Positions 19,402-49,302 are shown, counted from the first letter of the stretch. The stretch: DNA of 64,000 nucleotides from Gammaproteobacteria bacterium (GCA_025358295.1 JANYJY010000010.1:25913-89912), one strand, 5' to 3'. Made by a program: numbers and translations. The notes: generated by a model not told the origin, from the letters alone.

Positions 19402-19450
19402 TGCATCGCTCCTCAAATGACGTAGTGTAGTCGTCGTCGCCCCGTAAAAC

Positions 19451-33677: not shown

Positions 33678-33742
33678 TTTCTTAAGTTTGGCGCGAAGGC
33701 GCGTTTATATATTTCGAGTATAGGCAGCGCGCCATAAAAAAG

Positions 33743-33760: not shown

Positions 33761-33815
33761 TTTTAATGACCGCTCCATGCTACTGTCCAACTTCATATCG
33801 GGGGCGGGCTCGGCA

Positions 33816-35495
33816 ATGGCTGAATTTAACAAAATCGGCGGCGAAGATTTGTCGCGGCTGCGTATTTCGGTGACGACCATAGGGGACCTGCTCCTCAGCG
33901 CCGCCGATCGTTACCCCGACACTCTCGCGCTCGTATTTCCAGACTCACAATACACGTATCAGGAACTGGCCACGCGTGCTTTGCGTCGTGCCCGCAGCCT
34001 ACAGGCGCTCGGCGTGAAGCCGCGCGACCACGTCGGCATTTTGATGCCCACCTGCCCTGCATTCGTCGAAATATTTTTTGCCGCCGCGCTGTGCGGCGCC
34101 GTAGTCGTGCCGATCAATGCGCGCTACCGCGCGCAAGAACTCGCCTATGTGATCGAGAACGGCGACATCGTCACACTGATCACCACCGATGCCATCGCCG
34201 ATCAGGTCAATTTCGTCGAGCGACTGGCCGGCGCCGTGCCCACCCTCAAGTCCCAAGCCGACCCACGGCGGCTGCAGGTGCCGGGCATGCCGGCTTTGCG
34301 CAACATTGTGTTACTGGGTGAGACGACATCGCCGGGCTTCATATCGCAGGGCGAATTCGATGCTCTCGAGGAAACCTCGCCCGAGGAGAAGGTGCATCTT
34401 GCCCGCCTCGGGGTGCGCGTTCGCGACGTGGGACTCATGTTGTATACCTCGGGCACGACCGCAAATCCCAAGGGCTGCCGCATCACCCACGAAGCGCAGG
34501 TGCGCAATTCCATCGCGCTCGGCCGGCATCGTTATCGTCTCACCCACGAGGACCGGTTTTGGTCGCCGCTGCCGATGTTCCACATCGCCTCGGTGTTGCC
34601 GATGCTCGCCATCTTCGATGTCGGCGGCACGTATCTGACCATGAGCTACTTCGACGCCGGCGTCGCCCTGGACATGCTGCAGCGTTACGAAGTCACGGCG
34701 ACCTATCCGTGCTTCGTCACCATCATGCAGGGCCTGATCTATCATCCGAATTTTGCCAGCGCCGATCTTTCGCGCATCAAACTCATGAACTCGAATTTTG
34801 CCGTGCAGCCTCCGGATGTGGCGCAGTCCATCATGCGCGCCATGCCTCAGGCCCTGCAGGTCGGCAGCTTCGGCATGACCGAGACGGCAGGCACGGTATG
34901 CACCGGTTCGCCGGACGAGGCTGAATCCCTGCGCATCACGCGGCTGGGCAAGCCCCTGCCCGGCCTCGAGGTGCGCATCGTCGACGGCGAGAGCGGCGCC
35001 GATGTGGCCACCGGCGGGCACGGCGAAGTGCTGGTTCGCGGCTACAGTGTGCTCGAGGGCTATCACAAGGACGCGGAGAAAACCGCCGAGGCCATCGACT
35101 CGGACGGCTGGTTTCACACGGGCGACATCGGCTCCTTGGACGAACAGGGCACCATCATGTTCCACGGCCGCTACAAGGACATGCTGAAGGTCGGCGGTGA
35201 GAACGTAGCGGCGGCGGAAATAGAAGCGTTGCTCGGCCGTCATCCGGCGGTGAAGCTGGCGCAAGTCGTCGGCATTCCCGACGCGAAATATGTCGAGGTG
35301 CCGGCCGCCTTCGTCGAACTCAAGCCGGGCAGCACTGTCACCGAAGCCGAACTGGTAAGCTTCTGCAAGGCTGAGGTGGCTGCATTCAAGGTGCCGCGCG
35401 TTGTGCGCTTCGTCAGCGATTGGCCGATGTCCTCGACCAAGATTCAAAAATTCCGGCTGCGCGAAGCCTTGGTAGCCGACCTAGGGTTGACGTAA
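33816..35495 (+). CDS. Acyl-CoA synthetase / AMP-dependent ligase
   Basis: About 559 aa. Motifs: LYTSGTTANPKG, FHTGD, and KFRL near the C-terminus. I prefer the ATG at 33816 over 33777 because 33777 lies only 17 nt from the palindrome at 33743..33760. Confidence 0.88.
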   Translation: MAEFNKIGGEDLSRLRISVTTIGDLLLSAADRYPDTLALVFPDSQYTYQELATRALRRARSLQALGVKPRDHVGILMPTCPAFVEIFFAAALCGAVVVPINARYRAQELAYVIENGDIVTLITTDAIADQVNFVERLAGAVPTLKSQADPRRLQVPGMPALRNIVLLGETTSPGFISQGEFDALEETSPEEKVHLARLGVRVRDVGLMLYTSGTTANPKGCRITHEAQVRNSIALGRHRYRLTHEDRFWSPLPMFHIASVLPMLAIFDVGGTYLTMSYFDAGVALDMLQRYEVTATYPCFVTIMQGLIYHPNFASADLSRIKLMNSNFAVQPPDVAQSIMRAMPQALQVGSFGMTETAGTVCTGSPDEAESLRITRLGKPLPGLEVRIVDGESGADVATGGHGEVLVRGYSVLEGYHKDAEKTAEAIDSDGWFHTGDIGSLDEQGTIMFHGRYKDMLKVGGENVAAAEIEALLGRHPAVKLAQVVGIPDAKYVEVPAAFVELKPGSTVTEAELVSFCKAEVAAFKVPRVVRFVSDWPMSSTKIQKFRLREALVADLGLT

Positions 35496-35501
35496 GACAC
35501 C

Positions 35502-36029
35502 ATGTCCGCTCTGCCGCACTTTGGGCCCATCGTTCAGAACGCCTTCGTGGTACGCGACCTGGAGCCGGCAGTGGCCTACTGGTCCGGCAAGCTCGGCGTC
35601 GGCCCGTTCTACATGCTCGAGCATATTTCATTCGGCAAAGTGTATTTTCGCGGCGCGCCGTTGTCTCTCGACATGTCGGTCGCCATCGCGCAGTGGGGCG
35701 ATATGCAAATCGAGCTGATCGTGCAACACGATGCAGTCCCTTCCATTTACTCCGAATTCCTGGCCCGCCACGGCGAAGGCCTGCAACATCTCGGCGTCAT
35801 GACCGCTTCCCTGGATGAACACCTCGAGCGCTTGCGGCCGCTGGGCATCGAGCCGGTGCAATGGGGCGAAACGGCGGGAGGCATGCGCTTTGCCTACATC
35901 AATACCGACCAGCAGGCCGGGGGCATGATCGAATTGATAGAAACCGGACCCGCGGTCGAGGCCTTTTTCTCGAAGGTGCGCGGCGCCGCGGCAAACTGGG
36001 ACGGCAGCCGGCCGCTGCGGCGTCTCTAG
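35502..36029 (+). CDS. VOC (glyoxalase/bleomycin-resistance/dioxygenase) family protein
   Basis: 175 aa. Shows the paired beta-alpha-beta-beta-beta pattern, with ...GLQHLGV... and ...MIELIE.... Confidence 0.7.
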   Translation: MSALPHFGPIVQNAFVVRDLEPAVAYWSGKLGVGPFYMLEHISFGKVYFRGAPLSLDMSVAIAQWGDMQIELIVQHDAVPSIYSEFLARHGEGLQHLGVMTASLDEHLERLRPLGIEPVQWGETAGGMRFAYINTDQQAGGMIELIETGPAVEAFFSKVRGAAANWDGSRPLRRL

Positions 36030-36041
36030 CACGCTGCCAAC

Positions 36042-36569
36042 GTGCCGTTTTCAAAACTCAATCCGGTCCAGATCGCCTATCACGTTGCGGACCCGGAGCG
36101 GGCGGCGCATGACTACGCGCGCAGTTACGGCTGGGGACCCTTCTTTTTGTTCGAACACATCGCACTGAGCCAGTGCCTGTATCGCGGCTCGCCCGCGATC
36201 TTCGATCACAGTTCCGCTTACGGCCAGGCGGGTGAACTCATGATCGAACTCATTACCCAACACGATGACCGGCCCTCGGTGTTGCGCGATCTGTTTGCGC
36301 GCGACGCCGTGGGCGTACATCACGTGGCGCACTTCGTGCCCAATCTGCCGGAGACTCTGGAACAGGCGCGCGTCGCCGGCCGTGATATTGCGCTCGATGC
36401 CTGTACGGCCACCGGCACGCACTTCGCCATGCTCGATACCTCACACGAGCTCGGTCACATGACCGAGCTGTACGAAGGCAGCGGCGATCTGCTCAGGTTT
36501 TATCGCTATGTACGGCGTGCCGCCGAAGGCTGGAGCGGCGCCGAGCCTCTGCGGCGTCTCAATGTCTGA
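36042..36569 (+). CDS. VOC family protein (tandem paralog)
   Basis: 175 aa, GTG start. Motifs: IAYHVAD, VHHVAHF, MTELYE. Has the same C-terminal ...W.G..PLRRL ending as the preceding gene. Confidence 0.7.
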   Translation: MPFSKLNPVQIAYHVADPERAAHDYARSYGWGPFFLFEHIALSQCLYRGSPAIFDHSSAYGQAGELMIELITQHDDRPSVLRDLFARDAVGVHHVAHFVPNLPETLEQARVAGRDIALDACTATGTHFAMLDTSHELGHMTELYEGSGDLLRFYRYVRRAAEGWSGAEPLRRLNV

Positions 36570-36605
36570 CACGGCAATTCAAATTCAAACGGCATAGGAA
36601 ACATC

Positions 36606-37409
36606 ATGGGACGCATTGACGGCAAGGTGGCGGTGATTTTGGGCGCGGCCGGCAAGGACAACATGGGGCAGGTCATCGCCCGCCGCTTCGCTGCCGAGGG
36701 CGCCCGTGTCATCGTGGCCGGACGCTCGGAAGCGCAGCTGCGTGCGCTCGCGGCGGAACTCGGCGGAGATCAGCGCGTCTGCGACATTACCCGCAGCGCC
36801 GATGTGGCTGCGCTGGCGCATTTTGCCGTGGAGCGCTTTGGCGGCCTCGATATTGCGGTCAATTGCACCGGCTGGGCGCCGATGACCAAGCTTCTCGACG
36901 TCAAAGAGGAAGAATTGGACAAGCTTTGCGCGCTGCAATTCAAGGGAGTTTATTTCTTCCTGCAAAGCATGGTGGCGCAGATGGCCGCGCACGGCGGCGG
37001 TTCCATCGTGCAAATGTCTTCGGCCTCAGCCTACGCCCTGCTCTACAACCACGCGGCCTACATTGCGACCAAATCAGCCGGCGATGCCTTGGTGCGCTGC
37101 TTCGCGAACGAGTTCGGCGCCAAGGGCGTGCGTGTCAATGCCATTGCACCGGGTTTGACCGGCAGTCCCATGACCTCTCACGAAATGAGCCTGCCGGGAC
37201 TTCAAGAAGCATTCATCAAAGAATATCCGCTCGGCAGGATCGGCACGGCGGAGGATATTGCGAACGCCGCTTTGTGGCTCGCCGGCAACGAAAGCTTCCT
37301 CACCGGCCAGGTTTTGCAGATCAACGGCGGCCTGACCTTGCGGCGCAATCCGACTCCCCGCGAAATCAGCGCCAGCATGAAGGCAGCCGCACCGAAGACC
37401 GGGCCATGA
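36606..37409 (+). CDS. Short-chain dehydrogenase/reductase
   Basis: 267 aa. Motifs: VAVILGAAGKDNMG and YIATKSA. Confidence 0.8.
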   Translation: MGRIDGKVAVILGAAGKDNMGQVIARRFAAEGARVIVAGRSEAQLRALAAELGGDQRVCDITRSADVAALAHFAVERFGGLDIAVNCTGWAPMTKLLDVKEEELDKLCALQFKGVYFFLQSMVAQMAAHGGGSIVQMSSASAYALLYNHAAYIATKSAGDALVRCFANEFGAKGVRVNAIAPGLTGSPMTSHEMSLPGLQEAFIKEYPLGRIGTAEDIANAALWLAGNESFLTGQVLQINGGLTLRRNPTPREISASMKAAAPKTGP

Positions 37410-38116
37410 TCGAACTCTATTTCTATCCTTCGCCTAACGGCTTGAAAATCGCCATCATGCTCGAAGAATGCGCGCTGCCCTACCAGGTGCGGTTCGTCGA
37501 CATTACGCGGGGCGCGCAATTCGATCCGAAGTTCTTGGAATTCAGCCCCAACAACAAGATTCCTGCGCTCATCGAGACCGATGCGGACGGCGGCCCCATA
37601 CGGCTGTTCGAATCCGGCGCCATCTTGGTCTATCTCGCTGAGCGCACGGGTCGCTTCCTGCCGACCGACCCGCACAGCCGCTACCAGTGCCTGGCATGGC
37701 TTTTCTGGCAGGTGGGCGGCCTCGGCCCCATGGCGGGACAAGCACATCACTTTCGTGCATTCGCCTCTGAAAATGTGCCCTACGGAATCCGCCGCTACAC
37801 CGACGAGGTGAACCGGCTGTACGGAGTGATGGACCGCAGGCTCGCAGATCGCGAATGGCTCGCCGGGGACTATTCCATTGCCGACATGGCGTGTTATCCC
37901 TGGATCGTACCGCACGAACGCCAGGGTCAAAGGCTCGAGGACTTTACGCATCTAAAGCGCTGGTTCGACGCCATGAGCGCCCGGCCCGGGGTGCAGCGCG
38001 GGCTGGCGCGCGGCAACGAGCGAGCGGCGGATGAAATCGGCCATACCTTTCTTTATGGACAATCGGCTGCAACAGTCAAAGACGAGGAAGCGCGCCGCGC
38101 GCAATCACCCAAATGA
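37406..38116 (+). CDS. Nu-class (YfcG/YghU-like) glutathione S-transferase
   Basis: 236 aa from the ATG at 37406, internal to listed ORF 36863..38116: MIELYFYPSPNGLKIAIMLEE...FSPNNKIPALI. This closely follows the YfcG N-terminus as I remember it. The start overlaps the SDR stop (ATGA). Confidence 0.85.
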   Translation: MIELYFYPSPNGLKIAIMLEECALPYQVRFVDITRGAQFDPKFLEFSPNNKIPALIETDADGGPIRLFESGAILVYLAERTGRFLPTDPHSRYQCLAWLFWQVGGLGPMAGQAHHFRAFASENVPYGIRRYTDEVNRLYGVMDRRLADREWLAGDYSIADMACYPWIVPHERQGQRLEDFTHLKRWFDAMSARPGVQRGLARGNERAADEIGHTFLYGQSAATVKDEEARRAQSPK

Positions 38117-39030
38117 ACGGCCCCATATTGCACGCTTACGACGCATCACCCTTCACCCAGCGCGCCCTGCGGCTGCTCGGAATCAAGAACGTGGACTGGC
38201 GCTGGGTCGAGACACCCATGATGCCCCCCAAGGATGATCTGCTGCTGCTGACCGGCGGTTATCGCGGCACGCCGGTACTGCAGTTCGGCAGCGACGTTTA
38301 CGTGGACTCGCAACTGATCGCGATGGAACTGGAACGCCGCTATCCGCTGCCGGCGCTATTTCCATCGGGCAGAACCGGACTCGACCTGGCGCTGGTCAAA
38401 TGGAGCGATGCTTTTTTCCGCAGCGCGCTCCACATCGTGCTCGCGCTACAAGCGGCCTCCTGGCCCGAGGCGTTTCGCCAGGATCGCGAACAAGTGTTCG
38501 CGGATATCGATTTCTCCAAAGCCGGGCATGCACTCGAGGATTCGCGCGCGCAATTTCGGGCACATGCGTACCTGCTCGAACAGCAGCTCGCGGACGGCGG
38601 CGCCTTTCTCGGCGGCGACTCGCCTGGATTGACCGATTCGCAGGTCTACCCCGTCGTATGGCTGATGCGCGCGGCTCTGCCGGAGGTCACCGGTCAATTG
38701 CTCATAGATCTCCCGCGGCTGGCTGCGTGGGAAGGCCGGGTCGCGGAACTCGGCGAAGGACGGCGAACGCGGATCGATGCCGGCGCCGCGCTCGAGGAGG
38801 CGCTTCGATCCGAACCCGTGCCGTACCTGGACATTGATCCCTACGACGCGCAAGCATTGACGCCGGGCATGCGAGTCCGCGTGTCGGCCGACGACACCCG
38901 CCGCGGCGAGGTCGAGGGCGAGGTCACCGTAGCATTGCCGAACAGAATTTCGGTCCGCCGTTCGCATCCGCGCATCGGCACCGTCGTGGTCCATTTCCCG
39001 CGCCTGGGCTATCGGGTCGCCCGCCTCTAA
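38113..39030 (+). CDS. GST-fold protein with C-terminal extension (paralog 2)
   Basis: 305 aa: ILHAYDASPFTQRALRLLGIKNV...YRGTPVLQFG. The tail is ...MRVRVSADDTRRGEVEGEV...VHFPRLGYRV, the same architecture as 27224..28150. The start overlaps the previous stop (ATGA). Confidence 0.7.
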   Translation: MNGPILHAYDASPFTQRALRLLGIKNVDWRWVETPMMPPKDDLLLLTGGYRGTPVLQFGSDVYVDSQLIAMELERRYPLPALFPSGRTGLDLALVKWSDAFFRSALHIVLALQAASWPEAFRQDREQVFADIDFSKAGHALEDSRAQFRAHAYLLEQQLADGGAFLGGDSPGLTDSQVYPVVWLMRAALPEVTGQLLIDLPRLAAWEGRVAELGEGRRTRIDAGAALEEALRSEPVPYLDIDPYDAQALTPGMRVRVSADDTRRGEVEGEVTVALPNRISVRRSHPRIGTVVVHFPRLGYRVARL

Positions 39031-39125
39031 ACGTTTCCGCGGAAACGTCTGTGGATAAGTCTTCGAACCGCACCGCAGCATCAAAGACTTGTACTTTATT
39101 CTGCGATCATCCTATTATACAAAAC

Positions 39126-39143
39126 AATCAGTACTGACTGTTT
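39126..39143. promoter_or_regulatory. Island palindrome site 4: AATCAGTACTGACTGTTT
   Basis: Lies 26 nt upstream of the E1-alpha ATG at 39169, after the GST-like gene ends at 39030. Confidence 0.55.
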
Positions 39144-39168
39144 TTTTATTTTGCTGCAGGGGGGAGAA

Positions 39169-40143
39169 ATGGCCGATCAATCCTACGATCCGATCATGCT
39201 GCTGGACGCCTATCGGCGCATGCGCGCCATCCGGGACTTTGAGGAACGCATGCGGCGTGAAGTCCAAGCCGGCACGGTGCCGGGATTTGTGCACTTGTAT
39301 TGCGGTCAAGAAGCTGTCGCCGTCGGCACCTGTATGCACCTGCTCGATACTGATTATATCGGCAGCACCCACCGCGGCCACGGACACTGCATCGCCAAGG
39401 GTTGCGACATCGGCGACATGCTGCTCGAGATCTATTGTAAGCAGGGCGGCCTGTGCAACGGCAAGGGTGGCTCGATGCACATTGCCGATTTGCGCAAGGG
39501 GATGCTCGGCGCCAATGCCATCGTGGGCGCGGCGCCGCCGATTGCCGTCGGCGCGGCATTGAGCCAGTCCACGCTGCAAACCGGTGGGGTTACCGTCACT
39601 TTCATCGGTGACGGGGCGTCCAATCAAGGCACGGTTGCCGAATCCTTGAACATGGCATCCATCCTGAAACTGCCGCTGATATTTCTTTATGAGAACAACG
39701 GCTATGCCGAGTTCACCGGCATCTCATACCACTTGGGCGGCAATATCGCGCGCCGCGCCGCGGGCTTCGGCATGCCGGGCGAGACCGTGGACGGAGTCGA
39801 CTTTTTCGCCGTCTATGACGCCGTCGGCCGCGCGGTGGAACGGGCGCGCAAAGGCGAAGGCCCGAGCGCCGTCGAGGCCGTCGCGATGCGCTGGTATGGT
39901 CATTTCGAAGGCGACATGCAGCTGTACCGGGATCCCCAAGAAGTGGATCGCCTGCGCGCGACTGCCGATCCTCTCGTCAAATTCGAGGACCGCGCAATCC
40001 GCGATTTCGGAATCTCCAAAGATGAATTGGTGGAAATCGATGAGGAAATCGCGGAACTGATCGAGGACCGCGTTGTGGCGGCGAAAGCAGCGCCCAAGCC
40101 GCCGCGCGAAGCGCTATACACAGACGTCTACGGGAGTTACTGA
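39169..40143 (+). CDS. TPP-dependent E1 alpha subunit, AcoA-like (second copy)
   Basis: 324 aa from the ATG at 39169 with a GGGGAG SD (the listed start 39151 is a TTG). Motifs: STHRGHGHCIAKG and GDGASNQG. Confidence 0.9.
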   Translation: MADQSYDPIMLLDAYRRMRAIRDFEERMRREVQAGTVPGFVHLYCGQEAVAVGTCMHLLDTDYIGSTHRGHGHCIAKGCDIGDMLLEIYCKQGGLCNGKGGSMHIADLRKGMLGANAIVGAAPPIAVGAALSQSTLQTGGVTVTFIGDGASNQGTVAESLNMASILKLPLIFLYENNGYAEFTGISYHLGGNIARRAAGFGMPGETVDGVDFFAVYDAVGRAVERARKGEGPSAVEAVAMRWYGHFEGDMQLYRDPQEVDRLRATADPLVKFEDRAIRDFGISKDELVEIDEEIAELIEDRVVAAKAAPKPPREALYTDVYGSY

Positions 40144-40144
40144 T

Positions 40145-41173
40145 ATGCCGATCAAGTCGTTTCGCGACGCCATCAATGAGACCCTCAAGCAGGAGATGCG
40201 TCGCGATTCGCGCGTCATCGTCATGGGCGAGGATGTGGTCGGCGGCATGGGCGGCAGCTCCGGCGTGGCCGAAGCCGCCGGCGGCACCTTCGGCGTCACT
40301 GCGGGACTCGCGGCCGAGTTCGGACGGCGGCGCGTCATCGATACGCCGATTACCGAATCGGCCATCATCGGCGCGGCGGGCGGCGCCGCACTCACCGGTC
40401 TGCGGCCGGTGGCGGAACTCATGTTCATCGACTTCATCGGCGTCTGCCTCGACCAGATCCTGAATCAGCAGGCCAAATTTCGCTACATGTTCGGCGGTAA
40501 ATGCAGCGTCCCCGTCACCATTCGCACCTTGATGGGTGCCGGACTCGGCGCCGGGCCGCAGCATTCGCAGAGCTTGCACGCCATTCTCACGTCCATTCCC
40601 GGCATCAAGGTGGTCTTGCCGTCGAATGCCGCGGATGCCAAGGGCTTGCTGGCGACGGCGATTCGCGACGATGATCCGGTCATTTTTTGTGAGCATAAAT
40701 TCCTCTACGGCGAAAGCTGCGAAGTACCGGACGGCGAATATCTGATTCCCTTCGGTAAAGCCAACGTGACGCGCCGCGGCAGCCACGTGACCGTCGTGGC
40801 CTTCTCACGCATGGTATTGCTCGCCAACAAGGTCGCCGACAAGTTGGCGAAGGAAGGGATTTCCGTGGAAGTGATCGATCCGCGCACCACCTCGCCGCTC
40901 GACCGCGACAGCATCCTGGAGTCGATCGAGAAAACCGGCCGTCTCGTGGTTGTCGATGAGGGAGGCCCGCTATGCGGCATGGCGAGTGAAATCGCGAGCC
41001 TGGCGGCGTGCCATGCATTGTCGGCATTGAAGGCGCCTGTGCAAAAAGTGACGCCGCCGCACACCCCGGTGCCGGCGACGCCGCATTTGGAACAGGATTG
41101 GGTGCCCTCGCCGGAGAAGATCGAACTTGCGATCCGCACCACCTTGGACCAGAAGCTGGCGCGTACCGGATGA
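40145..41173 (+). CDS. TPP-dependent E1 beta subunit, AcoB-like (second copy)
   Basis: 342 aa from the ATG at 40145 (MPIKSFRDAINETLKQEM...VIVMGEDV...VIDTPITESAIIGAAGGAAL). Confidence 0.9.
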   Translation: MPIKSFRDAINETLKQEMRRDSRVIVMGEDVVGGMGGSSGVAEAAGGTFGVTAGLAAEFGRRRVIDTPITESAIIGAAGGAALTGLRPVAELMFIDFIGVCLDQILNQQAKFRYMFGGKCSVPVTIRTLMGAGLGAGPQHSQSLHAILTSIPGIKVVLPSNAADAKGLLATAIRDDDPVIFCEHKFLYGESCEVPDGEYLIPFGKANVTRRGSHVTVVAFSRMVLLANKVADKLAKEGISVEVIDPRTTSPLDRDSILESIEKTGRLVVVDEGGPLCGMASEIASLAACHALSALKAPVQKVTPPHTPVPATPHLEQDWVPSPEKIELAIRTTLDQKLARTG

Positions 41174-41472
41174 GTCAGACCACCGGTTACGGCTGCTACA
41201 TGCGCGTGCGCACCAAGCCGCACAAGCGCGACGAATTCGTGCGGCTGATTTTGGAGCTGCGCCGGCAGGCGCTTGCCAACGAACCTGCAACGCTGTTCTT
41301 CGAATTCTTTCAGGCGGCGGACAGCAATGAATTCGTATTCCTCGAGGGCTTCGTCGATGAGTCCGCACAGCAACGGCATCAACAAGCTCCTTACCATTTG
41401 GCGATGTCGGAGGCAGGATGGGCATGCTTGGACGGACAGCCGACCATCGAATTCATGAAGCCGGCGCGCTAG
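41170..41472 (+). CDS. ABM-domain protein
   Basis: 100 aa from the internal ATG at 41170: MSQTTGYGCYMRVRTKPHKRDEFVRLILELRRQAL...FLEGFVDESAQQRHQQAPYH. The start overlaps the E1-beta stop (ATGA). Confidence 0.6.
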   Translation: MSQTTGYGCYMRVRTKPHKRDEFVRLILELRRQALANEPATLFFEFFQAADSNEFVFLEGFVDESAQQRHQQAPYHLAMSEAGWACLDGQPTIEFMKPAR

Positions 41473-43457
41473 CCGCCGCGCTGATTGGGCTGATCTTCGC
41501 GTCGGCTTGCTGGGCTGAGGCCCCCGGCGTGGTGACGTCCAGCGTGGTGACGCCCAGCGTGACCGCGGGTTGGAGCTATTACGGCGGCACCAGCGACGGC
41601 ACGCGTTATTCGACGGCGCATCAAATCAATCGCGATAATGTCGCCGACCTGCGCTTGGCCTGGAGCTATTCCACCGGAGAGATGCAGCGGCGCGGCGCGG
41701 ATTTGATCGCTAACAGCTCCACCGAGACCACCCCTATCCTGGTCGACGGCAATCTCGTGTTCTGCACGCCCTTCAATCGCCTGGTGGCGCTCGATCCGGG
41801 CACCGGCCGCGAGCGCTGGAGCCTGGATCCGAAAATCGACCTGAGCCACCCGATTCCCTATCAATACAATTGCCGCGGCGTGTCCTTCTGGCGCGACAGC
41901 CAGAGCATGGGGCCGCAGCTGTGCGCCACGCGCATATTCATGGCCACCAACGACTCGCGCATCATCGCCGTGGACGCGGCCACCGGCAGGCGCTGCCCCA
42001 ACTTCGGCGTCAACGGGGAAGTCACCCTCGTCCGCGATGCGCCGCCGAAATTTCCCGGGGAAGTCTCCATTTGTTCAGCGCCCGTGGTCGCGCGTGATGT
42101 GGTGGCCGTCGGCTCTTTCATCATGGACAACCTGCGCACCGATGCGCCCTCCGGGACGGTGTTCGGCGTGGATGTGCGATCCGGGGCGCTGCGCTGGAAA
42201 TTCGAGCCGGTGCCCCGCGATCCGGCGGATCCCGCCATGTCGACTTGGCTCGAGGGTAGCGCGACGCGAACCGGCGCCGCCAATGTGTGGTCGACCATGG
42301 TCGCAGACGAAGTGCGCGGCATCATCTATGCGCCGGTGGGTTCCGCCTCGCCGGATTTCTACGGCGGTGCGCGCAAAGGCAATAATTCATATTCCAGCTC
42401 GCTTGTAGCGCTCGATGCGACCACGGGCCGGCCCATATGGAATTTCCAGAGCGTGCATCACGATGTGTGGGATTACGATGTGTCGGCTCCCCCGCTGCTC
42501 GCGACTCTGCGCAAGGACGGCGCCAACATTCCGGTCGTCGTGCAGAACACCAAACAGGGCTTCGTGTGGGTGCTCAATCGCGAAGACGGCAAGCCGGTAT
42601 TCGGAGCGGTCGAGAAGCCCGTGCCGCAGAACGGACTGCCCGGCGAATGGCTCTCGCCCACCCAGCCTTTTCCGATCAAGCCCGCCCCGCTGGTGCCGCT
42701 CACATTGACGCCCGACGATGCCTGGGGATTCACGTTTTGGGACAAGCGCGCCTGCCGCAAGAAAATCGAATCACTGCGATCGCAAGGCATTTTCACACCG
42801 GCGTCGACCGCACCGGGCACGCTGTTGGTGCCGGGTTCGGCGGGCGGCGCAAACTGGGGTGGAGCGGCCTACGACGCCGAACATCAACTGATGATCGTCA
42901 ATGTCAACCGCGCGGCACAGGTCGTGATCATGATTCCGCGCAAGCAGATTCCGAGCCTCACCGGCATCAGCCTCGCCAACGGCACGGATGTCTCGGCGGC
43001 GACCGGCACGCCCTATGGCGTGCACCGCGAATGGCTGCTGTCGCCATGGGGCGCGCCCTGCAGTCCGCCCCCCTGGGGCGAGCTCGTCGCCCTCGATCTG
43101 TCGGACGGCAGCGTGCGCTGGCGAGTGCCTCTAGGGTCGATCGAGAAGCATCTGCCTTTCCACTTCGAGTGGAATCTGGGCACACCGAATCTGGGCGGCC
43201 CCATCGTCACGTCCGGCGGATTGGTGTTCATCGCCGCCACGATGGACGGATTTCTGCGAGCCTTCGATCTGCAATCGGGAAAAATGCTGTGGCGGGTCGA
43301 GCTGCCGGCCGGCGGCCAGGCGACGCCCATGACCTATGAAATCGGCGGGCGGCAGTATCTGGTCATGGTGACCGGACATCACATGTGGTTTGGCTCTCCG
43401 GCGGGCGACGCAGTGGTCGCCTACGCCCTCCCCGACTCCCGCGCCGCGGCGCACTAG
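41418..43457 (+). CDS. Exported PQQ-dependent dehydrogenase, glucose/quinate/shikimate-dehydrogenase family (no N-terminal membrane domain)
   Basis: 679 aa. Has a signal-like N-terminus (...ALAAALIGLIFASACWA). Motifs: WSYYGGTSDGTRYS..QINRDNV..L.LAWSY and ...TPILVDGNLVFCT...ALDPGTGRERW. No alternative in-frame start exists downstream of the ABM stop, so the overlap of about 50 nt appears real. Confidence 0.85.
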   Translation: MGMLGRTADHRIHEAGALAAALIGLIFASACWAEAPGVVTSSVVTPSVTAGWSYYGGTSDGTRYSTAHQINRDNVADLRLAWSYSTGEMQRRGADLIANSSTETTPILVDGNLVFCTPFNRLVALDPGTGRERWSLDPKIDLSHPIPYQYNCRGVSFWRDSQSMGPQLCATRIFMATNDSRIIAVDAATGRRCPNFGVNGEVTLVRDAPPKFPGEVSICSAPVVARDVVAVGSFIMDNLRTDAPSGTVFGVDVRSGALRWKFEPVPRDPADPAMSTWLEGSATRTGAANVWSTMVADEVRGIIYAPVGSASPDFYGGARKGNNSYSSSLVALDATTGRPIWNFQSVHHDVWDYDVSAPPLLATLRKDGANIPVVVQNTKQGFVWVLNREDGKPVFGAVEKPVPQNGLPGEWLSPTQPFPIKPAPLVPLTLTPDDAWGFTFWDKRACRKKIESLRSQGIFTPASTAPGTLLVPGSAGGANWGGAAYDAEHQLMIVNVNRAAQVVIMIPRKQIPSLTGISLANGTDVSAATGTPYGVHREWLLSPWGAPCSPPPWGELVALDLSDGSVRWRVPLGSIEKHLPFHFEWNLGTPNLGGPIVTSGGLVFIAATMDGFLRAFDLQSGKMLWRVELPAGGQATPMTYEIGGRQYLVMVTGHHMWFGSPAGDAVVAYALPDSRAAAH

Positions 43458-44725
43458 ATCGGTTCGAGGGTCACCCACAATTCGCGCAAATTGCGGCCGA
43501 AGAAGCTCGGTTGGTAGTCAGGCTCGGCATGACCGACCAACAGCGAAAAACCCCGGTAGCGATCCAGCAGCGCGCTGAAGGCGCTGCTCAGCTCCTGACG
43601 CGCCAACTGCGCGCCGATGCAGTGATGCCGGCCGATGCCAAGCGCCAAGTGCTTACCCGGCTGCTTGCGATCAAGATCGATGCGATCCGCATCCGGGAAC
43701 TGCGCCTCGTCGCGATTGGCCGAGCCGAATCGCAGCGACAACAAGTCCCCGGCGGCCAGTTCCACGCCGCCGAGTAGCGTCGGTTTCACGACCCGCCGAA
43801 ACATGCCCTGCGCGGGCGACTCCAGTCGCAGGATCTCCTCCACCAGATTGGCAGTCAGGTTGCGATCGGCCCGCAGCTCCGCCAGGGCCTTTGGGTCGCG
43901 GATCAGCAGCAGCAGCCCGGACGTGATGGCAGCGGTGGTCGTCTCATTGCCGGACGCGAGCAAGTCGATGGTGATGATGGTGAGCTGTTCTTGGAGATTG
44001 AAATTCGTCTCCGGGCGGGCCGAGGCTTGTACCAATTCAGACAACAAATCCGCACGCGGCGCGCGGCGCCGCTGTTCCAGCTCGGCGGCGAAGTAATGCT
44101 GCATCTCCACGACCAGCCGCGCGCACTCCAGTTCGCGCTCCGCGGATACCATCATGCTGAAAGGCTCGACAATGGCATCGGACCAGGCTTTGAAGCGGTT
44201 CAGATCGTCGTGCGGAATGCCGATCAGGTCGGCGATGACGATCATCGGCAGCGGATGCGCGAACTCGTGCACGAACTCAATACCGGTGCGTCCGGCGAGA
44301 CCGTCCAGCAGTGCGACGGCCGTGCGATCGATCAGAGGCTTGATCCCACGCACACGCTGCACGGTGAACAAAGGCTCCAGGAACTTGCGCACGCGCGTGT
44401 GCACCGGCGGATCGGAAGTCGAACACGATGCCAGCGGCAGCCAACCCTGCTTCTGGTAGACATCGATGATTTCCTGCGGCACGCCGTCGGGCTTGATCGC
44501 CATGGGGCTGACGCCGCTCTCGTACAAGTCCGGATGACGCATGATCTCGCGGCAAAGCTCGAAACTCGTCACGAGATAGAACCCGTTCTGCGGCATGCGG
44601 TACACGGGCGCCTGAGCGCGCGCAGCCTTGTAGAAATCATAGGGACATTGCTGCACCTGCGGTTCCATAAGGTTCCAGGAATCGAGGGCAACGGGCACGT
44701 TTTGATTATCCATTTCTGACTTCAT
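43454..44725 (-). CDS. Cytochrome P450
   Basis: 423 aa. Has I-helix LLASGNETTT, an ExxR (EEILRLES) and the haem-thiolate loop LGIGRHHCIG. The start overlaps the upstream quinohemoprotein stop (ATGA). Confidence 0.9.
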   Translation of the reverse strand: MKSEMDNQNVPVALDSWNLMEPQVQQCPYDFYKAARAQAPVYRMPQNGFYLVTSFELCREIMRHPDLYESGVSPMAIKPDGVPQEIIDVYQKQGWLPLASCSTSDPPVHTRVRKFLEPLFTVQRVRGIKPLIDRTAVALLDGLAGRTGIEFVHEFAHPLPMIVIADLIGIPHDDLNRFKAWSDAIVEPFSMMVSAERELECARLVVEMQHYFAAELEQRRRAPRADLLSELVQASARPETNFNLQEQLTIITIDLLASGNETTTAAITSGLLLLIRDPKALAELRADRNLTANLVEEILRLESPAQGMFRRVVKPTLLGGVELAAGDLLSLRFGSANRDEAQFPDADRIDLDRKQPGKHLALGIGRHHCIGAQLARQELSSAFSALLDRYRGFSLLVGHAEPDYQPSFFGRNLRELWVTLEPI

Positions 44726-46581
44726 CTACCGTCGACGGAAAAGACCAACAACACATTGCCGCCCATCCGGCCGCCGAATAGGTAACCGGAATTCACCACC
44801 ACACGGCCGTTCGCAACGACCGCGCCGGCACTCTCTATCGAGCCGCCGTGCGCCTTACCGCCGCCCACCGTATCGAATTGACCATGGGTATCGAAGGACC
44901 AAAGCAGCTGACCGTCGCGTTCACGGTAGGCGCGCAGCCAGCCGTCGAAGGACGGCTGAAACACAGCGCCCGGAATCGACGTCGCCGGCGGCGAATAACC
45001 GCGATCGCAAGCCGGCTTGTCCGCTGCCGCGCAGACATCGGGCGCGGCCGCGAACCACTTGATCGCGCCGCTCTCGGGACTAAGTGCAAACAGCCCGGGT
45101 TTCGCTTCGCCCTTCTCGGTGCCGAGAAATATCGTATCGGCATTCGGCGCGTACAAAACCGATGCTGAGGCGGCCATGCCCCAATGCACTCCTCCGGCAA
45201 ATCCTCCCCGTCCATACTTGACGTGCCAGACCAGCGTGCCGTCGTCCGGGTTCAACGCGAAAACATCGGCAGATTTCTCTCCCACGAGCAGCACATCTTT
45301 GCCGCTCTTGAGTTTATGCAGGATGGGCGGCGCGCCGATATCGAGATCCGGGCCGTTCTCCAGAGGACAGTTCGGTCCGCCGCCGATGAAACACGCCATG
45401 TTCCAGGCATCGTGCTGAATCGACTGATGCCACCACAACATGCGACCCGTATCCAAATCGTAGGCGATGACTGCATCGCTTTGCGGTACCGCGGGTGAGG
45501 TGTAGGACTCGCCGGTGCCCACGTACAGGCGCCGACGCTTTACATCGATGGTAGGAGAATTCCAAACCGGCGCACCGGCCGGAGCGTGACGCAATGTCCC
45601 CGCCGATGTGCGCTCACCGGTCGCTTGCGGCTCACCCGGAATCGAATAGCTTCGCCACACGACATGTCCGTCAGTGGCGTCCAGTGCCGCCACACCGCCG
45701 CGGAAGGTGCAGCATTCGTAACTGGGATCCGCCGCCGCCGACCATTCATTCGACGACAGGGGAACGTAGAGACGGCCGGCGTAGTAGCGCGGCGAACCCG
45801 TGATGGTCAGCCGCGGATGCGCATCCACTCGGGTCGTCCATAACAGCTTGCCGCTCAAGGCATCGAGCGCATACGCATTGCCGCTGAAATCGCCGAACCA
45901 CAATCGGGGCCGTGCCTTGACATCACCCTTGCGCCAGGGCTCGAGGATCGGGCTGACGCGAACCTCCGCCGCGGCCTGAAAACTCCAGCGAACGCAACCG
46001 GTGTCGTAGTCCAGCGCATACACCGTGCCGTCCTGACTGCCGACGAAAATTGCACCCGCACCGATGGTGGGCTGCGAGCGGGCGCGCGAGGCGCCCGGAA
46101 AGGCAAAAGCCCATTTAAATTTCAAGCGCGGCACGTCGCGGGCGTCGAGACCTGCCGCAGCCGCATCGATGTGGCGGGAATTCTCGAGGGTCATGCCCCA
46201 ACCCGCCAGTGGTGGGGGGCTGCGCAAATCGAATTGCTGGCGATCCGCCGGACACTCAGGTCCCGCCACCTGCCCCGAGACGGGCAGAGCGGCGCCACCC
46301 AGGAATTCCGCCACCGACTGCCGCTCGCCGGGGGTCAGGTGGGAGCCCTGCTCCTGCATCGCCCCGGACTCCAGGGCCGACATGATCGCCCGCGGACCGA
46401 GCATTTGGAATTCAACCGAATGAGGCGCCCGCGGTACCCCGCCTTCATGACAGGTGGCGCAAATCGAGCCGTAGATTTCCGCGGGTGGCCGCTCAGCGGC
46501 TGCGGAAACCCCTGAATTTAAAGCCAAAATCGCCAGGATCACCGATCCCGACAGCCGTGCCAGCAAGCATTTATTTTGCAA
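44722..46581 (-). CDS. Exported quinohemoprotein: cytochrome c + PQQ propeller (PVADH-like, paralog 2)
   Basis: 619 aa. TTG start with a GGGGAG SD 8 nt upstream. Has a signal peptide (...ILALNSGVSAAAE), a CATCHEG haem c site and propeller repeats (GSQDGTVYALD, GKLLWT). Confidence 0.85.
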   Translation of the reverse strand: MQNKCLLARLSGSVILAILALNSGVSAAAERPPAEIYGSICATCHEGGVPRAPHSVEFQMLGPRAIMSALESGAMQEQGSHLTPGERQSVAEFLGGAALPVSGQVAGPECPADRQQFDLRSPPPLAGWGMTLENSRHIDAAAAGLDARDVPRLKFKWAFAFPGASRARSQPTIGAGAIFVGSQDGTVYALDYDTGCVRWSFQAAAEVRVSPILEPWRKGDVKARPRLWFGDFSGNAYALDALSGKLLWTTRVDAHPRLTITGSPRYYAGRLYVPLSSNEWSAAADPSYECCTFRGGVAALDATDGHVVWRSYSIPGEPQATGERTSAGTLRHAPAGAPVWNSPTIDVKRRRLYVGTGESYTSPAVPQSDAVIAYDLDTGRMLWWHQSIQHDAWNMACFIGGGPNCPLENGPDLDIGAPPILHKLKSGKDVLLVGEKSADVFALNPDDGTLVWHVKYGRGGFAGGVHWGMAASASVLYAPNADTIFLGTEKGEAKPGLFALSPESGAIKWFAAAPDVCAAADKPACDRGYSPPATSIPGAVFQPSFDGWLRAYRERDGQLLWSFDTHGQFDTVGGGKAHGGSIESAGAVVANGRVVVNSGYLFGGRMGGNVLLVFSVDGR

Positions 46582-46620
46582 GATATTGCTCCCCCGGGTA
46601 ATGCCCGGATAATAACAAAC

Positions 46621-46638
46621 AAACAGTCATGATTGTTT
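46621..46638. promoter_or_regulatory. Island palindrome site 5: AAACAGTCATGATTGTTT
   Basis: Lies in the divergent gap between the quinohemoprotein/P450 operon (start 46581) and the TonB-dependent receptor (start 46747). Confidence 0.55.
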
Positions 46639-46746
46639 TTTTCTCGATGTTGAGTTAAGTTCGCCGAAATAATGAAGGTTCCGCCGGGAACGATTTTTGC
46701 CGATGGCTTTACACAAGGCGGTTCGTCCGCCGCAAGGGGAGTTGAT

Positions 46747-49302
46747 ATGCGACGTTTTAAATTAAATGGGGTCGGCGGTACGCTGGCCACCCTTACTTTG
46801 GCCCTCGGGCCGATGGCCGGCGCCTATGCGGCCGAGGAAGGCGCCACCGCCACCAATTCGGGTTCTCTCGAGGAAATCGTGGTGACCGGCACCAAGCGCG
46901 ATGTGACCGCACAGAGCGTCCCGATCTCGATGACGGCCATCGGCGCCGCGGAACTCGCGAGCGTACATGTCAATGACATCAAGGCGCTGGCGACTCTGGC
47001 GCCCGGCCTGGTGCTGTCGAATCCCGCGGGCTTTAACGCCGCAGGCGGCGGCATGCGCGGTACCGGCACCAACATCATTCTGGTCACCCAGGACGCACCC
47101 GTCAGCTTCCTGGTGGATGATTTCGTTCTGTCGCAGGTCACCTCGCAATTCGTCACCCTGTTCGACACGCAACAGGTCGAGGTTTACCGCGGACCGCAGG
47201 GCACCCTGTTCGGTGCCAACGCGACCGGCGGTGTGATCTCCATCATTTCGAAGAAGCCGGAACTCAACAAGTACTACGCAGAGAGCGAGGCGACCTACGG
47301 TCATTACGGCAATGGCGCGGGCATTGCGAGTGTCAAACAGGCCTTCAATCTTCCGCTGAGCGACACCCTGGCCTTCAGGCTGGCGGCAATCTACGACTAC
47401 GACGCCGGCTACTACACCAACAACAAGAATAGTGCGACCTTCCCGGGCAACGTGCCGCTATGGAGCGCTTTTGGCATTCCCCAGGGAACTCCCCTGCCGC
47501 CCGGAGTGAATCCACTGACCACCGGCAACGGTGAGCGCCTCGGCGGTCGCGACGTACTGGCGGCCAAAGCCAAATTGTTGTGGCAGCCTAACGACTATTA
47601 CTCGGCATTGCTGACCGGCGAAGTGGTGCACGACCGCTCCGGATCACCGCCGGGCGTCAACGAGAGTTCCCCGACCGACCTGATTCCCGCATTGGGCTTT
47701 CCCGGCATCGGTCAAACGCATCAGGGCAATGTTTTCTCGACGTTGATCACCAACAATGCCGATATTCAGGAACCGCAGGGACACCGCGTGGATAACAACG
47801 GCATTTACCTGACGCAAACCCTGACTCAGTCGTACGGTGAATTCAAGTCGATCACCGGGTACCGTAACGAGCGTGCACGCTTGCCGAGCACCTACACCGG
47901 CGAATCGTTTCTGACTTTGTTCGATTCCATGCGCAACTCCAACCGCTACACGTTTCAGCAGGAAGTCCGCTTCGCATCCAACTTCAAGGGACCTTTCAAC
48001 TTTGTCGCCGGCGCGAATTATTTCCACGATTCCTTCGATTTTCTTGCTTACTACTCGGTGGGTTTGACCGCACTGATTCCGGTCATCAATCCGACGACGG
48101 GCACGTTCTTGACGCCCGCAGGCCAGGTCAGCCTGAACACCGAGGCGCTGCACGACTATCAGTTCCAAGGCACCACGCAGCAACGTCACCAGGAGGCTCT
48201 GTTCTGGGACGGAAACTATGACATCACGGATAAACTCCAGTTCACGGCCGGCGTGCGCTTCAGCGAGGACCATAAGAAATTCCTGCGCTATGTCAACGGT
48301 GGCGGCCCCTGCACCTCTCTGACGGCGCCGGACGATATCGAAGCCGGCGGCGGATCGTGCCTCGACTCGCATTCCAATTTCATCAGCCGCGCGGGAATTC
48401 AGCCCGGCGCGTTTAACGGCGGCGTGTTCAGCCCGCTGCCGCTATCGGCCTTCGGTACCGTCGTCAACGACAGTAGCAGCTGGAATAAGACCACGTTCCG
48501 CACGGTGCTTGATTACAAGCCCGAGCCGGGTCAATTGGTGTATTTGAGCTACGCCACGGGCTTCTTGTCCGGAGGGTTCTCTGAGACCTGCGCGACGGTC
48601 GCGCGCTGCAAGTATGATCCGGAGACCAATAACAATTTGGAATTGGGTTATAAGTCGGATCTCATCGACAACACCCTGCGCCTGAATGCGGCCCTGTACT
48701 TGACCAAGTACAACAATCTGCAGCAGGCGGTGGTGGCAGCCTACACGGCTTCCGACGGCACGGGCCAACAGGAGACGGTGACGGTCAACACGGGAACCTC
48801 GCGTGCGACCGGCTTGGATCTGGAGATGAACTGGATCGCAATGCACGGGTTGCGCATCGACGCTTCGCTCAACTACCTGCATCATATTTACACTTCCGGC
48901 TCCATTCCGGATCTCGTGAAGATTCCGGCAGGCCCCTCGACTCCCTTGAGCCAGTACCAGGTGACGTTCTCGCCGACCTGGAAGGGCAATTTGAGCGCCA
49001 ACTACGATATCCCCTTCGCGCCTCTAAATCGCTGGACGCTGCACGCGGACGGCAACTACCAGGGCACCGCACAGACTGATGTGTACAACACCGTCAACAC
49101 GCAGATGCAGAGCCGCTTGCTGTTGAATGCCTCGGCGACGTATCACGATGCCGCCGGCAAATGGACGTTCACCCCGTGGGTGTCGAACATCGCGGATAAG
49201 GTCTATCGGGTCGCGGCACTCCCGGTCGCGGGTTTGTGGGACTTCACCAACTATGGGGCGCCGCGCTCATTCGGCGTTACCGCGAATCTGCGCTTCGAAT
49301 AG
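46747..49302 (+). CDS. TonB-dependent outer-membrane receptor (paralog 2)
   Basis: About 851 aa from the ATG at 46747 (AAGGGGAG SD): MRRFKLNGVGGTLATLTLALGPMAGAYAAEE.., with the plug region LEEIVVTGTKRDVTAQSVPISMTAI. Confidence 0.9.
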   Translation: MRRFKLNGVGGTLATLTLALGPMAGAYAAEEGATATNSGSLEEIVVTGTKRDVTAQSVPISMTAIGAAELASVHVNDIKALATLAPGLVLSNPAGFNAAGGGMRGTGTNIILVTQDAPVSFLVDDFVLSQVTSQFVTLFDTQQVEVYRGPQGTLFGANATGGVISIISKKPELNKYYAESEATYGHYGNGAGIASVKQAFNLPLSDTLAFRLAAIYDYDAGYYTNNKNSATFPGNVPLWSAFGIPQGTPLPPGVNPLTTGNGERLGGRDVLAAKAKLLWQPNDYYSALLTGEVVHDRSGSPPGVNESSPTDLIPALGFPGIGQTHQGNVFSTLITNNADIQEPQGHRVDNNGIYLTQTLTQSYGEFKSITGYRNERARLPSTYTGESFLTLFDSMRNSNRYTFQQEVRFASNFKGPFNFVAGANYFHDSFDFLAYYSVGLTALIPVINPTTGTFLTPAGQVSLNTEALHDYQFQGTTQQRHQEALFWDGNYDITDKLQFTAGVRFSEDHKKFLRYVNGGGPCTSLTAPDDIEAGGGSCLDSHSNFISRAGIQPGAFNGGVFSPLPLSAFGTVVNDSSSWNKTTFRTVLDYKPEPGQLVYLSYATGFLSGGFSETCATVARCKYDPETNNNLELGYKSDLIDNTLRLNAALYLTKYNNLQQAVVAAYTASDGTGQQETVTVNTGTSRATGLDLEMNWIAMHGLRIDASLNYLHHIYTSGSIPDLVKIPAGPSTPLSQYQVTFSPTWKGNLSANYDIPFAPLNRWTLHADGNYQGTAQTDVYNTVNTQMQSRLLLNASATYHDAAGKWTFTPWVSNIADKVYRVAALPVAGLWDFTNYGAPRSFGVTANLRFE

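Follow-up and report, generated by a model that had tools for sequence, protein, structure and literature searches.

The window analysed here is a stretch of 64,000 nucleotides from a Gammaproteobacteria bacterium (GCA_025358295.1, JANYJY010000010.1:25913-89912); all numbers given below are window positions, and the G+C content is about 62% throughout. The host is a sediment bacterium, probably of the Steroidobacteraceae. The region under study, 39169-43457, is referred to as operon B and encodes the two subunits of a thiamine pyrophosphate (TPP)-type E1 enzyme resembling AcoA and AcoB, a small ABM-fold protein and an exported pyrroloquinoline quinone (PQQ) dehydrogenase:

39169-40143, plus strand: E1-alpha B, AcoA-like, 324 aa (Pfam E1_dh, 1.5e-76; TPP motif GDG-N26-NN)
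40145-41173, plus strand: E1-beta B, AcoB-like, 342 aa (Transket_pyr and Transketolase_C)
41170-41472, plus strand: ABM-fold protein, 100 aa, cytoplasmic (PF03992, 3e-12; 46.9 bits versus a cut-off of 23.1)
41418/41424-43457, plus strand: PQQ_B, exported PQQ dehydrogenase of the glucose dehydrogenase (GDH) family (PF01011, 8.5e-223)

Operon B looks like one member of a pair of paralogous modules of a conserved catabolic type, where the genes for an Aco-type E1 (TPP, alpha2beta2) and a lipoyl E2 are linked to those for exported PQQ-dependent secondary-alcohol dehydrogenases; that these enzymes are also mechanistically coupled we consider moderately probable.

The genes of operon B are tightly packed. 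The E1-beta gene opens one base after the E1-alpha gene, E1-beta and ABM are joined by an ATGA overlap at 41170-41173, and the ABM gene ends with TAG at 41470-41472. The Pfam and NCBIfam matches and the reading frames confirm all sequence-level statements of the initial annotation, which had described a second AcoA-like/AcoB-like pair, followed by an ABM gene with an ATGA overlap and then by an exported PQQ enzyme of the GDH family. Comparison of the ABM protein with the PDB finds just weak relatives, for which the function is not known. PQQ_B is 679 aa long when read from the ATG at 41418 and 677 aa when read from the ATG at 41424. It matches TIGR03074 (glucose/quinate/shikimate dehydrogenases) only at profile positions 152-783, with 658 bits, which is below the cut-off of 832.65; as this match begins at profile position 152, PQQ_B is without the five-helix membrane domain, and its alignment with Gcd likewise begins past the transmembrane region of Gcd. 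The best NCBIfam matches of the E1 subunits are pyruvate dehydrogenase (PDH) models. E1-alpha stays under its cut-off, and the only curated cut-off passed is that of the PDH E1-beta subfamily model NF006667 by E1-beta B (330 bits versus 321); no protein reaches an NCBIfam equivalog cut-off.

The second copy, operon A, is found on the other strand:

18640-19452, minus strand: short-chain dehydrogenase/reductase (SDR), upstream gene of operon A
17801-18598, minus strand: ThuA-like protein, upstream gene of operon A
16407-17804, minus strand: Rieske oxygenase alpha subunit, upstream gene of operon A
15430-16410, minus strand: E1-alpha A, 326 aa
14383-15405, minus strand: E1-beta A, 340 aa, with its 3' end in an ATGA overlap with PQQ_A (14383-14386)
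12434-14386, minus strand: PQQ_A, exported, 650 aa, cytochrome c (CAQCH) plus PQQ propeller, of the polyvinyl alcohol dehydrogenase (PVADH) type

Beyond the end of operon B lie four genes that are part of the argument:

43454-44725, minus strand: cytochrome P450, 423 aa, second gene of the PQQ_C-P450 operon
44722-46581, minus strand: PQQ_C, exported quinohaemoprotein of the PVADH type, N-terminal cytochrome c (CATCH) plus PQQ propeller, with a TTG start and a signal peptide
46672-49302, plus strand: TonB-dependent receptor, conserved divergent neighbour of PQQ_C
49389-50618, minus strand: E2 lipoyl acyltransferase, with a lipoyl domain (ETEK), an E3-binding domain and the catalytic motif DHRVVDG; the only E2 in the window

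A cytoplasmic Aco-type E1 followed by a periplasmic PQQ enzyme is therefore present twice, as had been noted initially, and the identity between the E1-alpha copies, estimated by eye at roughly 60%, is computed as 58% (63% for E1-beta). PQQ_C, the E2 and a shared operator motif (described below) had been overlooked. PQQ_C converges on operon B; it has the same architecture as PQQ_A and is 47% identical to it. The description of the two PQQ enzymes as members of different families holds for those directly downstream of the E1 genes (PQQ_A and PQQ_B, PVADH-type and GDH-type, are 22% identical), but the contrast between the operons is not supported, because operon B is also tied to the PVADH-like PQQ_C.

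The public gene call of PQQ_C (545 aa) begins too far downstream and leaves the protein without its signal peptide and its cytochrome c domain (46479-46581; 5282-6919 in the related locus L001). Starting at TTG 46581 restores both, and the homologues are 610-630 aa long, with PF13442. The stop codons of PQQ_B and of the convergent P450 gene are one palindromic CTAG (43454-43457), read as TAG on both strands; there is neither intergenic space nor a terminator between the two operons, and this tight layout recurs in related loci.

The conservation of operon B was examined by a scan with E1-alpha B, using one genome per species, which gave 80 loci, in which the window proteins were placed by tblastn. 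Clades were taken from a neighbour-joining tree of E1-alpha, and the clade counts refer to loci with at least 5 kb downstream:

Operon B-like clade (mostly metagenome-assembled genomes of Steroidobacteraceae, 70-88% identity): PQQ gene in 20/20, cytochrome-c type in 19, PQQ_B in 18, ABM in 17, P450 in 15
Halieaceae/Luminiphilus sister clade: PQQ gene in 8/8, in the order E1-alpha, E1-beta, cytochrome-c/PQQ, E2, with a PQQ_B-like gene nearby
Hellea-type clade: PQQ gene in 3/3
A-type clade: PQQ gene in 4/4
Classical acoABC loci (Pseudomonas, Klebsiella, Serratia, Brenneria) and other E1 loci: PQQ gene in 0/18

The co-occurrence of acoAB-like genes and PQQ genes across genomes, proposed as a check in the initial annotation, is thus seen in all 35 loci of the PQQ-linked E1 clades, the PQQ gene being of the cytochrome-c type in 34 of them, versus none of the 18 classical aco and other control loci. 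The PQQ-linked loci span Steroidobacteraceae, Halieaceae, Woeseiaceae and some Alphaproteobacteria. In the B-type loci the P450 gene adjoins PQQ_C in 15/20 cases. The acoB-like and acoC-like genes of the Halieaceae loci have the PQQ gene between them; in classical aco operons, it is an SDR gene that follows acoC. The cultured Seongchinamella unica GH4-78 carries one tight co-directional operon, in which the genes for a TonB-dependent receptor, an M24 peptidase, E1-alpha, E1-beta, the cytochrome-c/PQQ enzyme, E2, P450, a SnoaL-fold protein and PQQ_B follow each other. Among the matches listed for PQQ_B homologues at 45-52% identity, none of 77 has an E1 gene within 8 kb, and the link between E1 and PQQ enzymes is therefore clade-specific rather than generic.

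The ABM gene had been regarded as inserted into the module. This is not supported by the related loci, in which ABM and PQQ_B form a conserved gene pair that is kept even where it is parted from E1 (L042/L083); in S. unica the SnoaL-fold gene occupies that place. In a lake metagenome-assembled contig, CAIKZZ010000006.1 (L003 and L074), the A-type and B-type modules adjoin, in the order SDR, ThuA-like, Rieske oxygenase, E1-alpha A, E1-beta A and E2, then the TonB-dependent receptor, PQQ_C and P450, and ABM, E1-beta B and E1-alpha B; as in the window, the E2 gene converges on that of the TonB receptor.

The universal partner of E1 in these loci is the cytochrome-c/PQQ enzyme of the PVADH type, and operon B has one too, namely PQQ_C. 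The tree of the cytochrome-c/PQQ enzymes has three groups, PQQ_C with the B-type E1, PQQ_A with the A-type E1, and a Halieaceae group without E1. The E1 and cytochrome-c/PQQ clades co-vary, and therefore the modules look like paralogues of a duplicated ancestral E1-E2-cytochrome-c/PQQ unit. The earlier view that the pairing of E1 and PQQ enzyme had arisen independently twice is not in agreement with this co-variation of E1-A with PQQ_A and of E1-B with PQQ_C, which points to one duplicated module. The E1-less group (L180-L244; Halieaceae such as Haliea alexandrii, Kineobactrum sediminis and, as L224, Seongchinamella unica) lies in a strongly conserved block with genes for an AMP-ligase, a thiolase, a Rieske oxygenase (RHO3-like), a TonB-dependent receptor and a glutathione S-transferase (GST; GST_0-like), and the same families occur in the regulon of the window.

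The direct junction of E1-beta with a PQQ gene, which the initial annotation took as a design common to both operons, is not an original feature of operon A. A scan with PQQ_A gave more than 20 A-type loci, all ordered E1-alpha, E1-beta, E2, PQQ_A, and the order of SDR, ThuA-like and Rieske oxygenase genes ahead of the A-type E1 is also kept in more than 20 loci. In L166, whose proteins are 84-94% identical to those of the window, the E2 gene lies between E1-beta and PQQ_A, at L166 positions 6699-8028. In operon A of the window the E2 gene is cleanly absent; the last codons of E1-beta A differ, and the start of PQQ_A follows by the ATGA overlap. As more than 20 orthologous loci, including L166, hold an E2 gene at this place, the direct junction is a recent, lineage-specific deletion of E2. 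One Logan contig crosses this junction in four runs, and an assembly error at this site is excluded by the agreement of the four Logan assemblies. The Logan unitigs break up inside E1-beta A (14432-14760), where the word depth is locally doubled, which suggests that words are common to E1-beta A and its paralogue E1-beta B, or that a strain variant co-exists. As the window has two E1 pairs and just one E2, this single E2 probably serves both E1s.

The two modules and the genes around them also share an operator-like element. A perfect 24-nt palindrome, AAAACAATCAGT/ACTGACTGTTTT, lies at 39121-39144, 25 nt upstream of E1-alpha B. The motif derived for this element, AACARWCAG-N4-GAYTGTT, is present at six sites in the window, all of them intergenic, versus 0 in 100 shuffles:

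19448-19467: head of operon A; same position in L059, L066, L074 and L080
28196-28215: between a GST gene (27224-28150) and a Rieske oxygenase gene (28277-29488)
33740-33759: ahead of an operon with AMP-ligase, VOC, VOC, SDR, GST and GST genes
39123, within the palindrome 39121-39144: ahead of operon B; position kept in related loci
46618-46637: between PQQ_C and the TonB-dependent receptor
50712-50731: divergent promoter region of E2 and a Rieske oxygenase

When up to two mismatches are allowed, the E1-related loci (about 1.0 Mb) contain 87 matches, many of which overlap and which fall on about 55-60 distinct places, compared with 1 match in 1.1 Mb of control loci. The matches in related loci sit at the corresponding promoters of the A-type and B-type clusters. 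A candidate binder of this predicted operator is the TetR-family regulator encoded at 20385-21035 (plus strand); its gene is a conserved neighbour of A-type operons, with a degenerate copy of the motif in its own upstream region (20292-20311). That the genes of operons A and B, of PQQ_C-P450 and the receptor, and of E2 belong to one pathway or regulon is a conclusion that we hold with high confidence.

The spacer between the upstream GST gene (GST2) and E1-alpha B contains two other repeats, a perfect 18-nt palindrome, ACGTTTCCGCGGAAACGT, at 39031-39048, directly after the GST2 stop codon, and an inverted repeat at 39057-39090 with a stem of 10 nt and a loop of 14 nt. Neither recurs within the window or is accompanied by a T tract; these repeats may be a terminator-like or protein-binding element. 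A scan of 36400-47000 for sigma-70 promoters and terminators gave numbers of sites not above those of shuffles.

Among the closest known systems is the acetoin dehydrogenase AcoA/AcoB/AcoC(/AcoL), combined with 2,3-butanediol dehydrogenase, of Pseudomonas, Klebsiella and Bacillus. The E1 heteromer with its TPP motif is shared with this system at about 60% identity; the two E1-alphas are 57-64% identical to the E1-alpha of acoABC-type loci (Pseudomonas, Klebsiella, Serratia), with a value of about 60-62% for E1-alpha B against classical acoA loci, and the identity to the solved E1-alpha structures of PDH and of branched-chain 2-oxoacid dehydrogenase is far lower, as judged by score. Both E1-alphas of the window keep the motif GDG-N26-NN, and both fall outside the classical aco clade of the E1-alpha tree. 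Also shared are the lipoyl E2 partner, which is behind the same operator in the window and within the operon in relatives, and an alcohol dehydrogenase encoded alongside, which would make the acyloin substrate. In the window, however, this dehydrogenase is one or two exported PQQ enzymes instead of a cytoplasmic NAD-dependent SDR or medium-chain dehydrogenase/reductase; there are two paralogous E1 pairs for one E2; P450, ABM or SnoaL, TonB receptor, Rieske oxygenase and GST genes are added in the PQQ-linked modules; and in place of an AcoR/sigma-54 regulator, of which there is none in the window, the palindromic operator and the TetR candidate are found.

A precedent for the combination of the two enzyme types exists in P. 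putida KT2440, where the periplasmic PQQ enzymes PedE and PedH make acetoin from (2S,3S)-2,3-butanediol, which is then cleaved by AcoABC (PMC8427195). The sequence from periplasmic PQQ dehydrogenase via acyloin to Aco E1/E2 would be the same in the window. The P. putida genes are unlinked and the PQQ enzymes that they encode belong to the methanol/ethanol family, whereas the PQQ enzymes of the window are of the GDH and PVADH types and are linked to E1/E2 both physically and by regulation.

PQQ_A and PQQ_C are 37-38% identical over the full length to the PVADH of the plasmid-borne pva operon of Sphingopyxis sp. 113P3, and their homologues are named polyvinyl alcohol dehydrogenase by JGI. They fit the PVADH architecture (EC 1.1.2.6 / K05889), with a signal peptide, a heme c CxxCH motif, a PQQ beta-propeller and a length of about 620-670 aa; the N-terminal cytochrome c followed by the PQQ propeller, the CxxCH motif and the vicinal Cys-Cys are also features of PvaA of Sphingopyxis sp. 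113P3 and Pseudomonas sp. VM15C. Enzymes of the PVADH family oxidise secondary alcohols. Unlike PvaA, the PQQ enzymes of the window have a TPP E1/E2 partner, such that C-C cleavage would be thiamine-dependent and not hydrolytic; a gene for an oxidised-PVA hydrolase (OPH-like) is not found beside PQQ_A or PQQ_C, whether in the window or in the loci related to it. In nature, PQQ_A and PQQ_C are unlikely to act on a synthetic polymer.

PQQ_B is 39% identical to the periplasmic propeller of E. coli Gcd. The residues aligned with D466 and K493, which we take from the Gcd mutagenesis literature to be the catalytic Asp and Lys, with D354, N355 and W404, taken likewise to be Ca/PQQ ligands, and with D730 and H775 are kept, and H262 is replaced by Tyr. 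In place of the N-terminal five-helix, ubiquinone-reducing domain of Gcd and TIGR03074 proteins, PQQ_B has a cleavable-type signal peptide. The steroid-17,20-desmolase DesAB of Clostridium scindens is also a TPP enzyme, and cleaves a side chain of the alpha-hydroxyketone type on a molecule that is large and hydrophobic. DesAB belongs to the split transketolases rather than to the PDH-type E1 enzymes and is not known to have an E2 or PQQ partner.

The pathway that we consider most likely would start with a hydrophobic or alicyclic substrate with secondary hydroxyls, which would enter via the TonB-dependent receptor. In the periplasm, PQQ_C, with its own cytochrome c, and the soluble PQQ_B would oxidise this substrate to a ketone or acyloin, passing the electrons to the respiratory chain. 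The product would then be imported into the cytoplasm and, where required, alpha-hydroxylated by the P450 or a Rieske oxygenase. The resulting alpha-hydroxyketone or alpha-diketone would be cleaved by E1, with E2 moving the acyl half to coenzyme A (CoA) and the other half being released as an aldehyde; a housekeeping E3 is assumed. This would follow the logic of the conversion of 2,3-butanediol via acetoin into acetyl-CoA, with periplasmic quinoproteins replacing the NAD-dependent butanediol dehydrogenase. The presence of a TonB receptor, a P450, Rieske oxygenases and GSTs argues for a substrate above the size of a C4 diol; as a speculation, this could be a long-chain secondary alcohol or methyl ketone, or an alicyclic, terpenoid or steroid alcohol.

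Several observations weigh against the proposed coupling or limit the evidence for it. That the product of the PQQ enzymes is the substrate of E1 is something we infer from linkage only. The neighbour-joining trees are without support values, and the synteny counts are descriptive and ignore the shared ancestry of the loci. PQQ_B, ABM and P450 are accessory and not obligatory parts of the module, because each of them is missing in some close relatives (L002, L003 and L019, which individually miss PQQ_B, ABM or P450 yet keep the cytochrome-c/PQQ gene). The operator motif is absent from the S. unica locus, and the evidence for a regulon is therefore limited to Steroidobacteraceae-type loci. Within the window, no genes for PQQ biosynthesis, an E3 or an inner-membrane importer can be assigned, and the PVADH-like homologues of Halieaceae occur without E1, in Rieske oxygenase, TonB-dependent receptor and GST contexts.

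This last observation would also fit an alternative that we regard as unlikely but still worth weighing, in which all genes belong to one pathway without a direct hand-over. The E1/E2 would then be a dehydrogenase of a 2-oxoacid or other keto compound several steps downstream, acting for instance on a side-chain product or a product of ring fission, and the PQQ enzymes would act at the periplasmic entry on another functional group. In favour of this reading, many downstream enzymes are encoded in the island (CoA ligase, thiolase/DUF35, acyl-CoA dehydrogenases, enoyl-CoA hydratases, HMG-lyase-like protein and IcmF-like mutase), and the PDH models among the best E1 matches, including NF006667, which E1-beta passes, point in the same direction. 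Set against this are the identity of about 60% of the E1 subunits to bona fide acoA/acoB products of Pseudomonas, Klebsiella and Serratia, and the position of the PQQ gene inside the E1-E2 operon in most lineages, between E1-beta and E2 or right after E2, which fits a tight functional pairing.

It is quite improbable that both E1 pairs are redundant acetoin/2,3-butanediol dehydrogenases and that the PQQ enzymes are stereoisomer-specific butanediol dehydrogenases like PedE and PedH. The identity of about 60% to classical AcoA/AcoB and the P. putida precedent (PMC8427195) agree with such a function, but the modules lie among, and share their regulation with, TonB receptor, P450, Rieske oxygenase, GST and CoA-ligase operons, none of which is required for a C4 diol, and the two E1 clades are kept distinct, with distinct gene partners, across many genomes. 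Chance adjacency in a crowded catabolic island, to which the many unrelated-looking catabolic genes of the window might point, has a negligible probability in view of the 35/35 versus 0/18 loci, the single operon of S. unica, the shared operator and the clade-specific link (E1 beside distant PQQ_B homologues in 0/77 among the matches listed), and the initial claim that the adjacency of E1 and PQQ genes reflects a functional link is upheld by the first three of these.

The overlap of the ABM and PQQ_B genes is a feature of its own. In the PQQ_B frame, ATG 41418 and ATG 41424 are the only ATG, GTG or TTG codons ahead of the hydrophobic segment, and the next canonical start, GTG 41529, lies past the AEA cleavage-like site; the N-terminus, MGMLGRTADHRIHEAGALAAALIGLIFASACWAEA, combines a hydrophobic core with an end of the AxA type. 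As no other canonical start precedes the hydrophobic segment, PQQ_B is read as starting 49-55 nt inside ABM. A Shine-Dalgarno-like GGAGG at 41409-41413 precedes the two ATGs by 4 and 10 nt. The statement that PQQ_B starts at this distance inside ABM, with no canonical start between the ABM stop and the signal segment, is confirmed by the reading of the frame and by Logan assemblies of four sediment-metagenome runs, which cover 41000-41800 with the ABM/PQQ_B junction unchanged. An assembly error is excluded by the agreement of these four independent assemblies, and a programmed -1 frameshift generating an ABM-PQQ fusion is excluded on logic, since the signal peptide would become internal.

In about 20 relatives, PQQ_B starts in an NTGA overlap with the ABM stop codon or 7-23 nt past this stop. 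The window reads CTA (…GCGCTAG…) at the ancestral start codon, and the ancestral start is therefore gone. The upstream ATGs are made within the ABM codons GGA-TGG-GCA-TGC, where relatives have xxC-TGG-GCC-TGx; in the window GGA and GCA are rare, accounting for 11.8% of the Gly and 10.5% of the Ala codons, respectively. The overlap looks like a local migration of the start codon, by which the n-region of the signal peptide would have gained about 17 residues. It is improbable that the start has instead been lost, with the gene decaying or with non-canonical initiation past the ABM stop (CTG 41481 or ATT 41484), in which case there would be no overlap of about 50 nt. The CTA at the ancestral NTGA position, the CTG, ATT and ATC codons at 41481-41493, and the missing, hence dispensable, PQQ_B of the closest relatives L002 and L003 agree with such a loss. 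However, the frame of 679 codons is intact, with a coding-type G+C content at third positions (GC3) of 0.79, initiation at 41481 would give a signal peptide without a charged n-region, the GGAGG stands ahead of two ATGs that are both created by rare A-ending ABM codons, and the same sequence is carried by four assemblies, all of which argues against such a loss.

Beyond the genes treated so far, the window makes up a catabolic island, with three alpha-only Rieske oxygenases, GSTs, SDRs, a CoA ligase, thiolase/DUF35, acyl-CoA dehydrogenases, enoyl-CoA hydratases, an HMG-lyase-like protein, an IcmF-like mutase and a fused oxoprolinase-like protein. The following features of the island are named above:

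27224-28150, minus strand: GST
28277-29488, plus strand: Rieske oxygenase
33777-39030: operon with AMP-ligase, VOC, VOC, SDR, GST and GST genes, ending just before operon B
38113-39030: GST2

The GSTs at 27224-28150 and 38113-39030 are paralogues of about 305 aa. Their N-terminal motif is SPF in place of CPF, about 90 aa at the C-terminus form a conserved extension, and no NCBIfam family matches them. The island is flanked by a fused B12-binding/MeaB/mutase protein (IcmF-like, 1113 aa, 7057-10398, minus strand) and a fused hydantoinase A/B (oxoprolinase-like, 1275 aa, 53930-57757, minus strand). In comparisons with solved structures and NCBIfam, the P450 is CYP267/CYP150/CYP125-like and the Rieske oxygenases are CntA/GbcA-like and alpha-only, which gives no clue to the substrate. 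The TonB receptors were also considered as PQQ importers (PqqU/YncD), and this is rejected, as they are not orthologues and have only a generic plug-domain similarity (26-32% over about 160-195 aa).

The cluster is not described in the literature covered by a full-text search, in which the unlinked P. putida genes are the only precedent; a review of lignin-dimer degradation does not mention TPP or PQQ enzymes. The system is a variation on the acetoin/butanediol paradigm and is not a new kind of system. Its carriers, Steroidobacteraceae, Halieaceae and Woeseiaceae, occur in abundance in soils and in the sediments of lakes and seas. Dozens of genomes from these families have kept the cluster, for which the literature searched describes no function. 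More tentatively, and as a possibility to which we give less than even weight, these sediment and marine Gammaproteobacteria may share a widespread, undescribed route, in which large hydrophobic or alicyclic secondary alcohols or diols would be oxidised periplasmically by two kinds of quinoprotein and the alpha-ketol cut by a specialised Aco-type E1/E2. This would be an oxygenase-sparing, thiamine-dependent C-C or ring cleavage, with paralogous modules for different substrates under one TetR-type regulon. The cultured carrier S. unica GH4-78 and the predicted operator make the proposed coupling of E1 and PQQ enzymes directly testable. If this coupling is right, the acetoin/butanediol paradigm would be extended to a periplasm-to-cytoplasm pathway for larger natural compounds, and a function would be provided for a soluble branch of the glucose dehydrogenase family and for many environmental genes annotated as polyvinyl alcohol dehydrogenase, which are often over-read as markers of plastic degradation.

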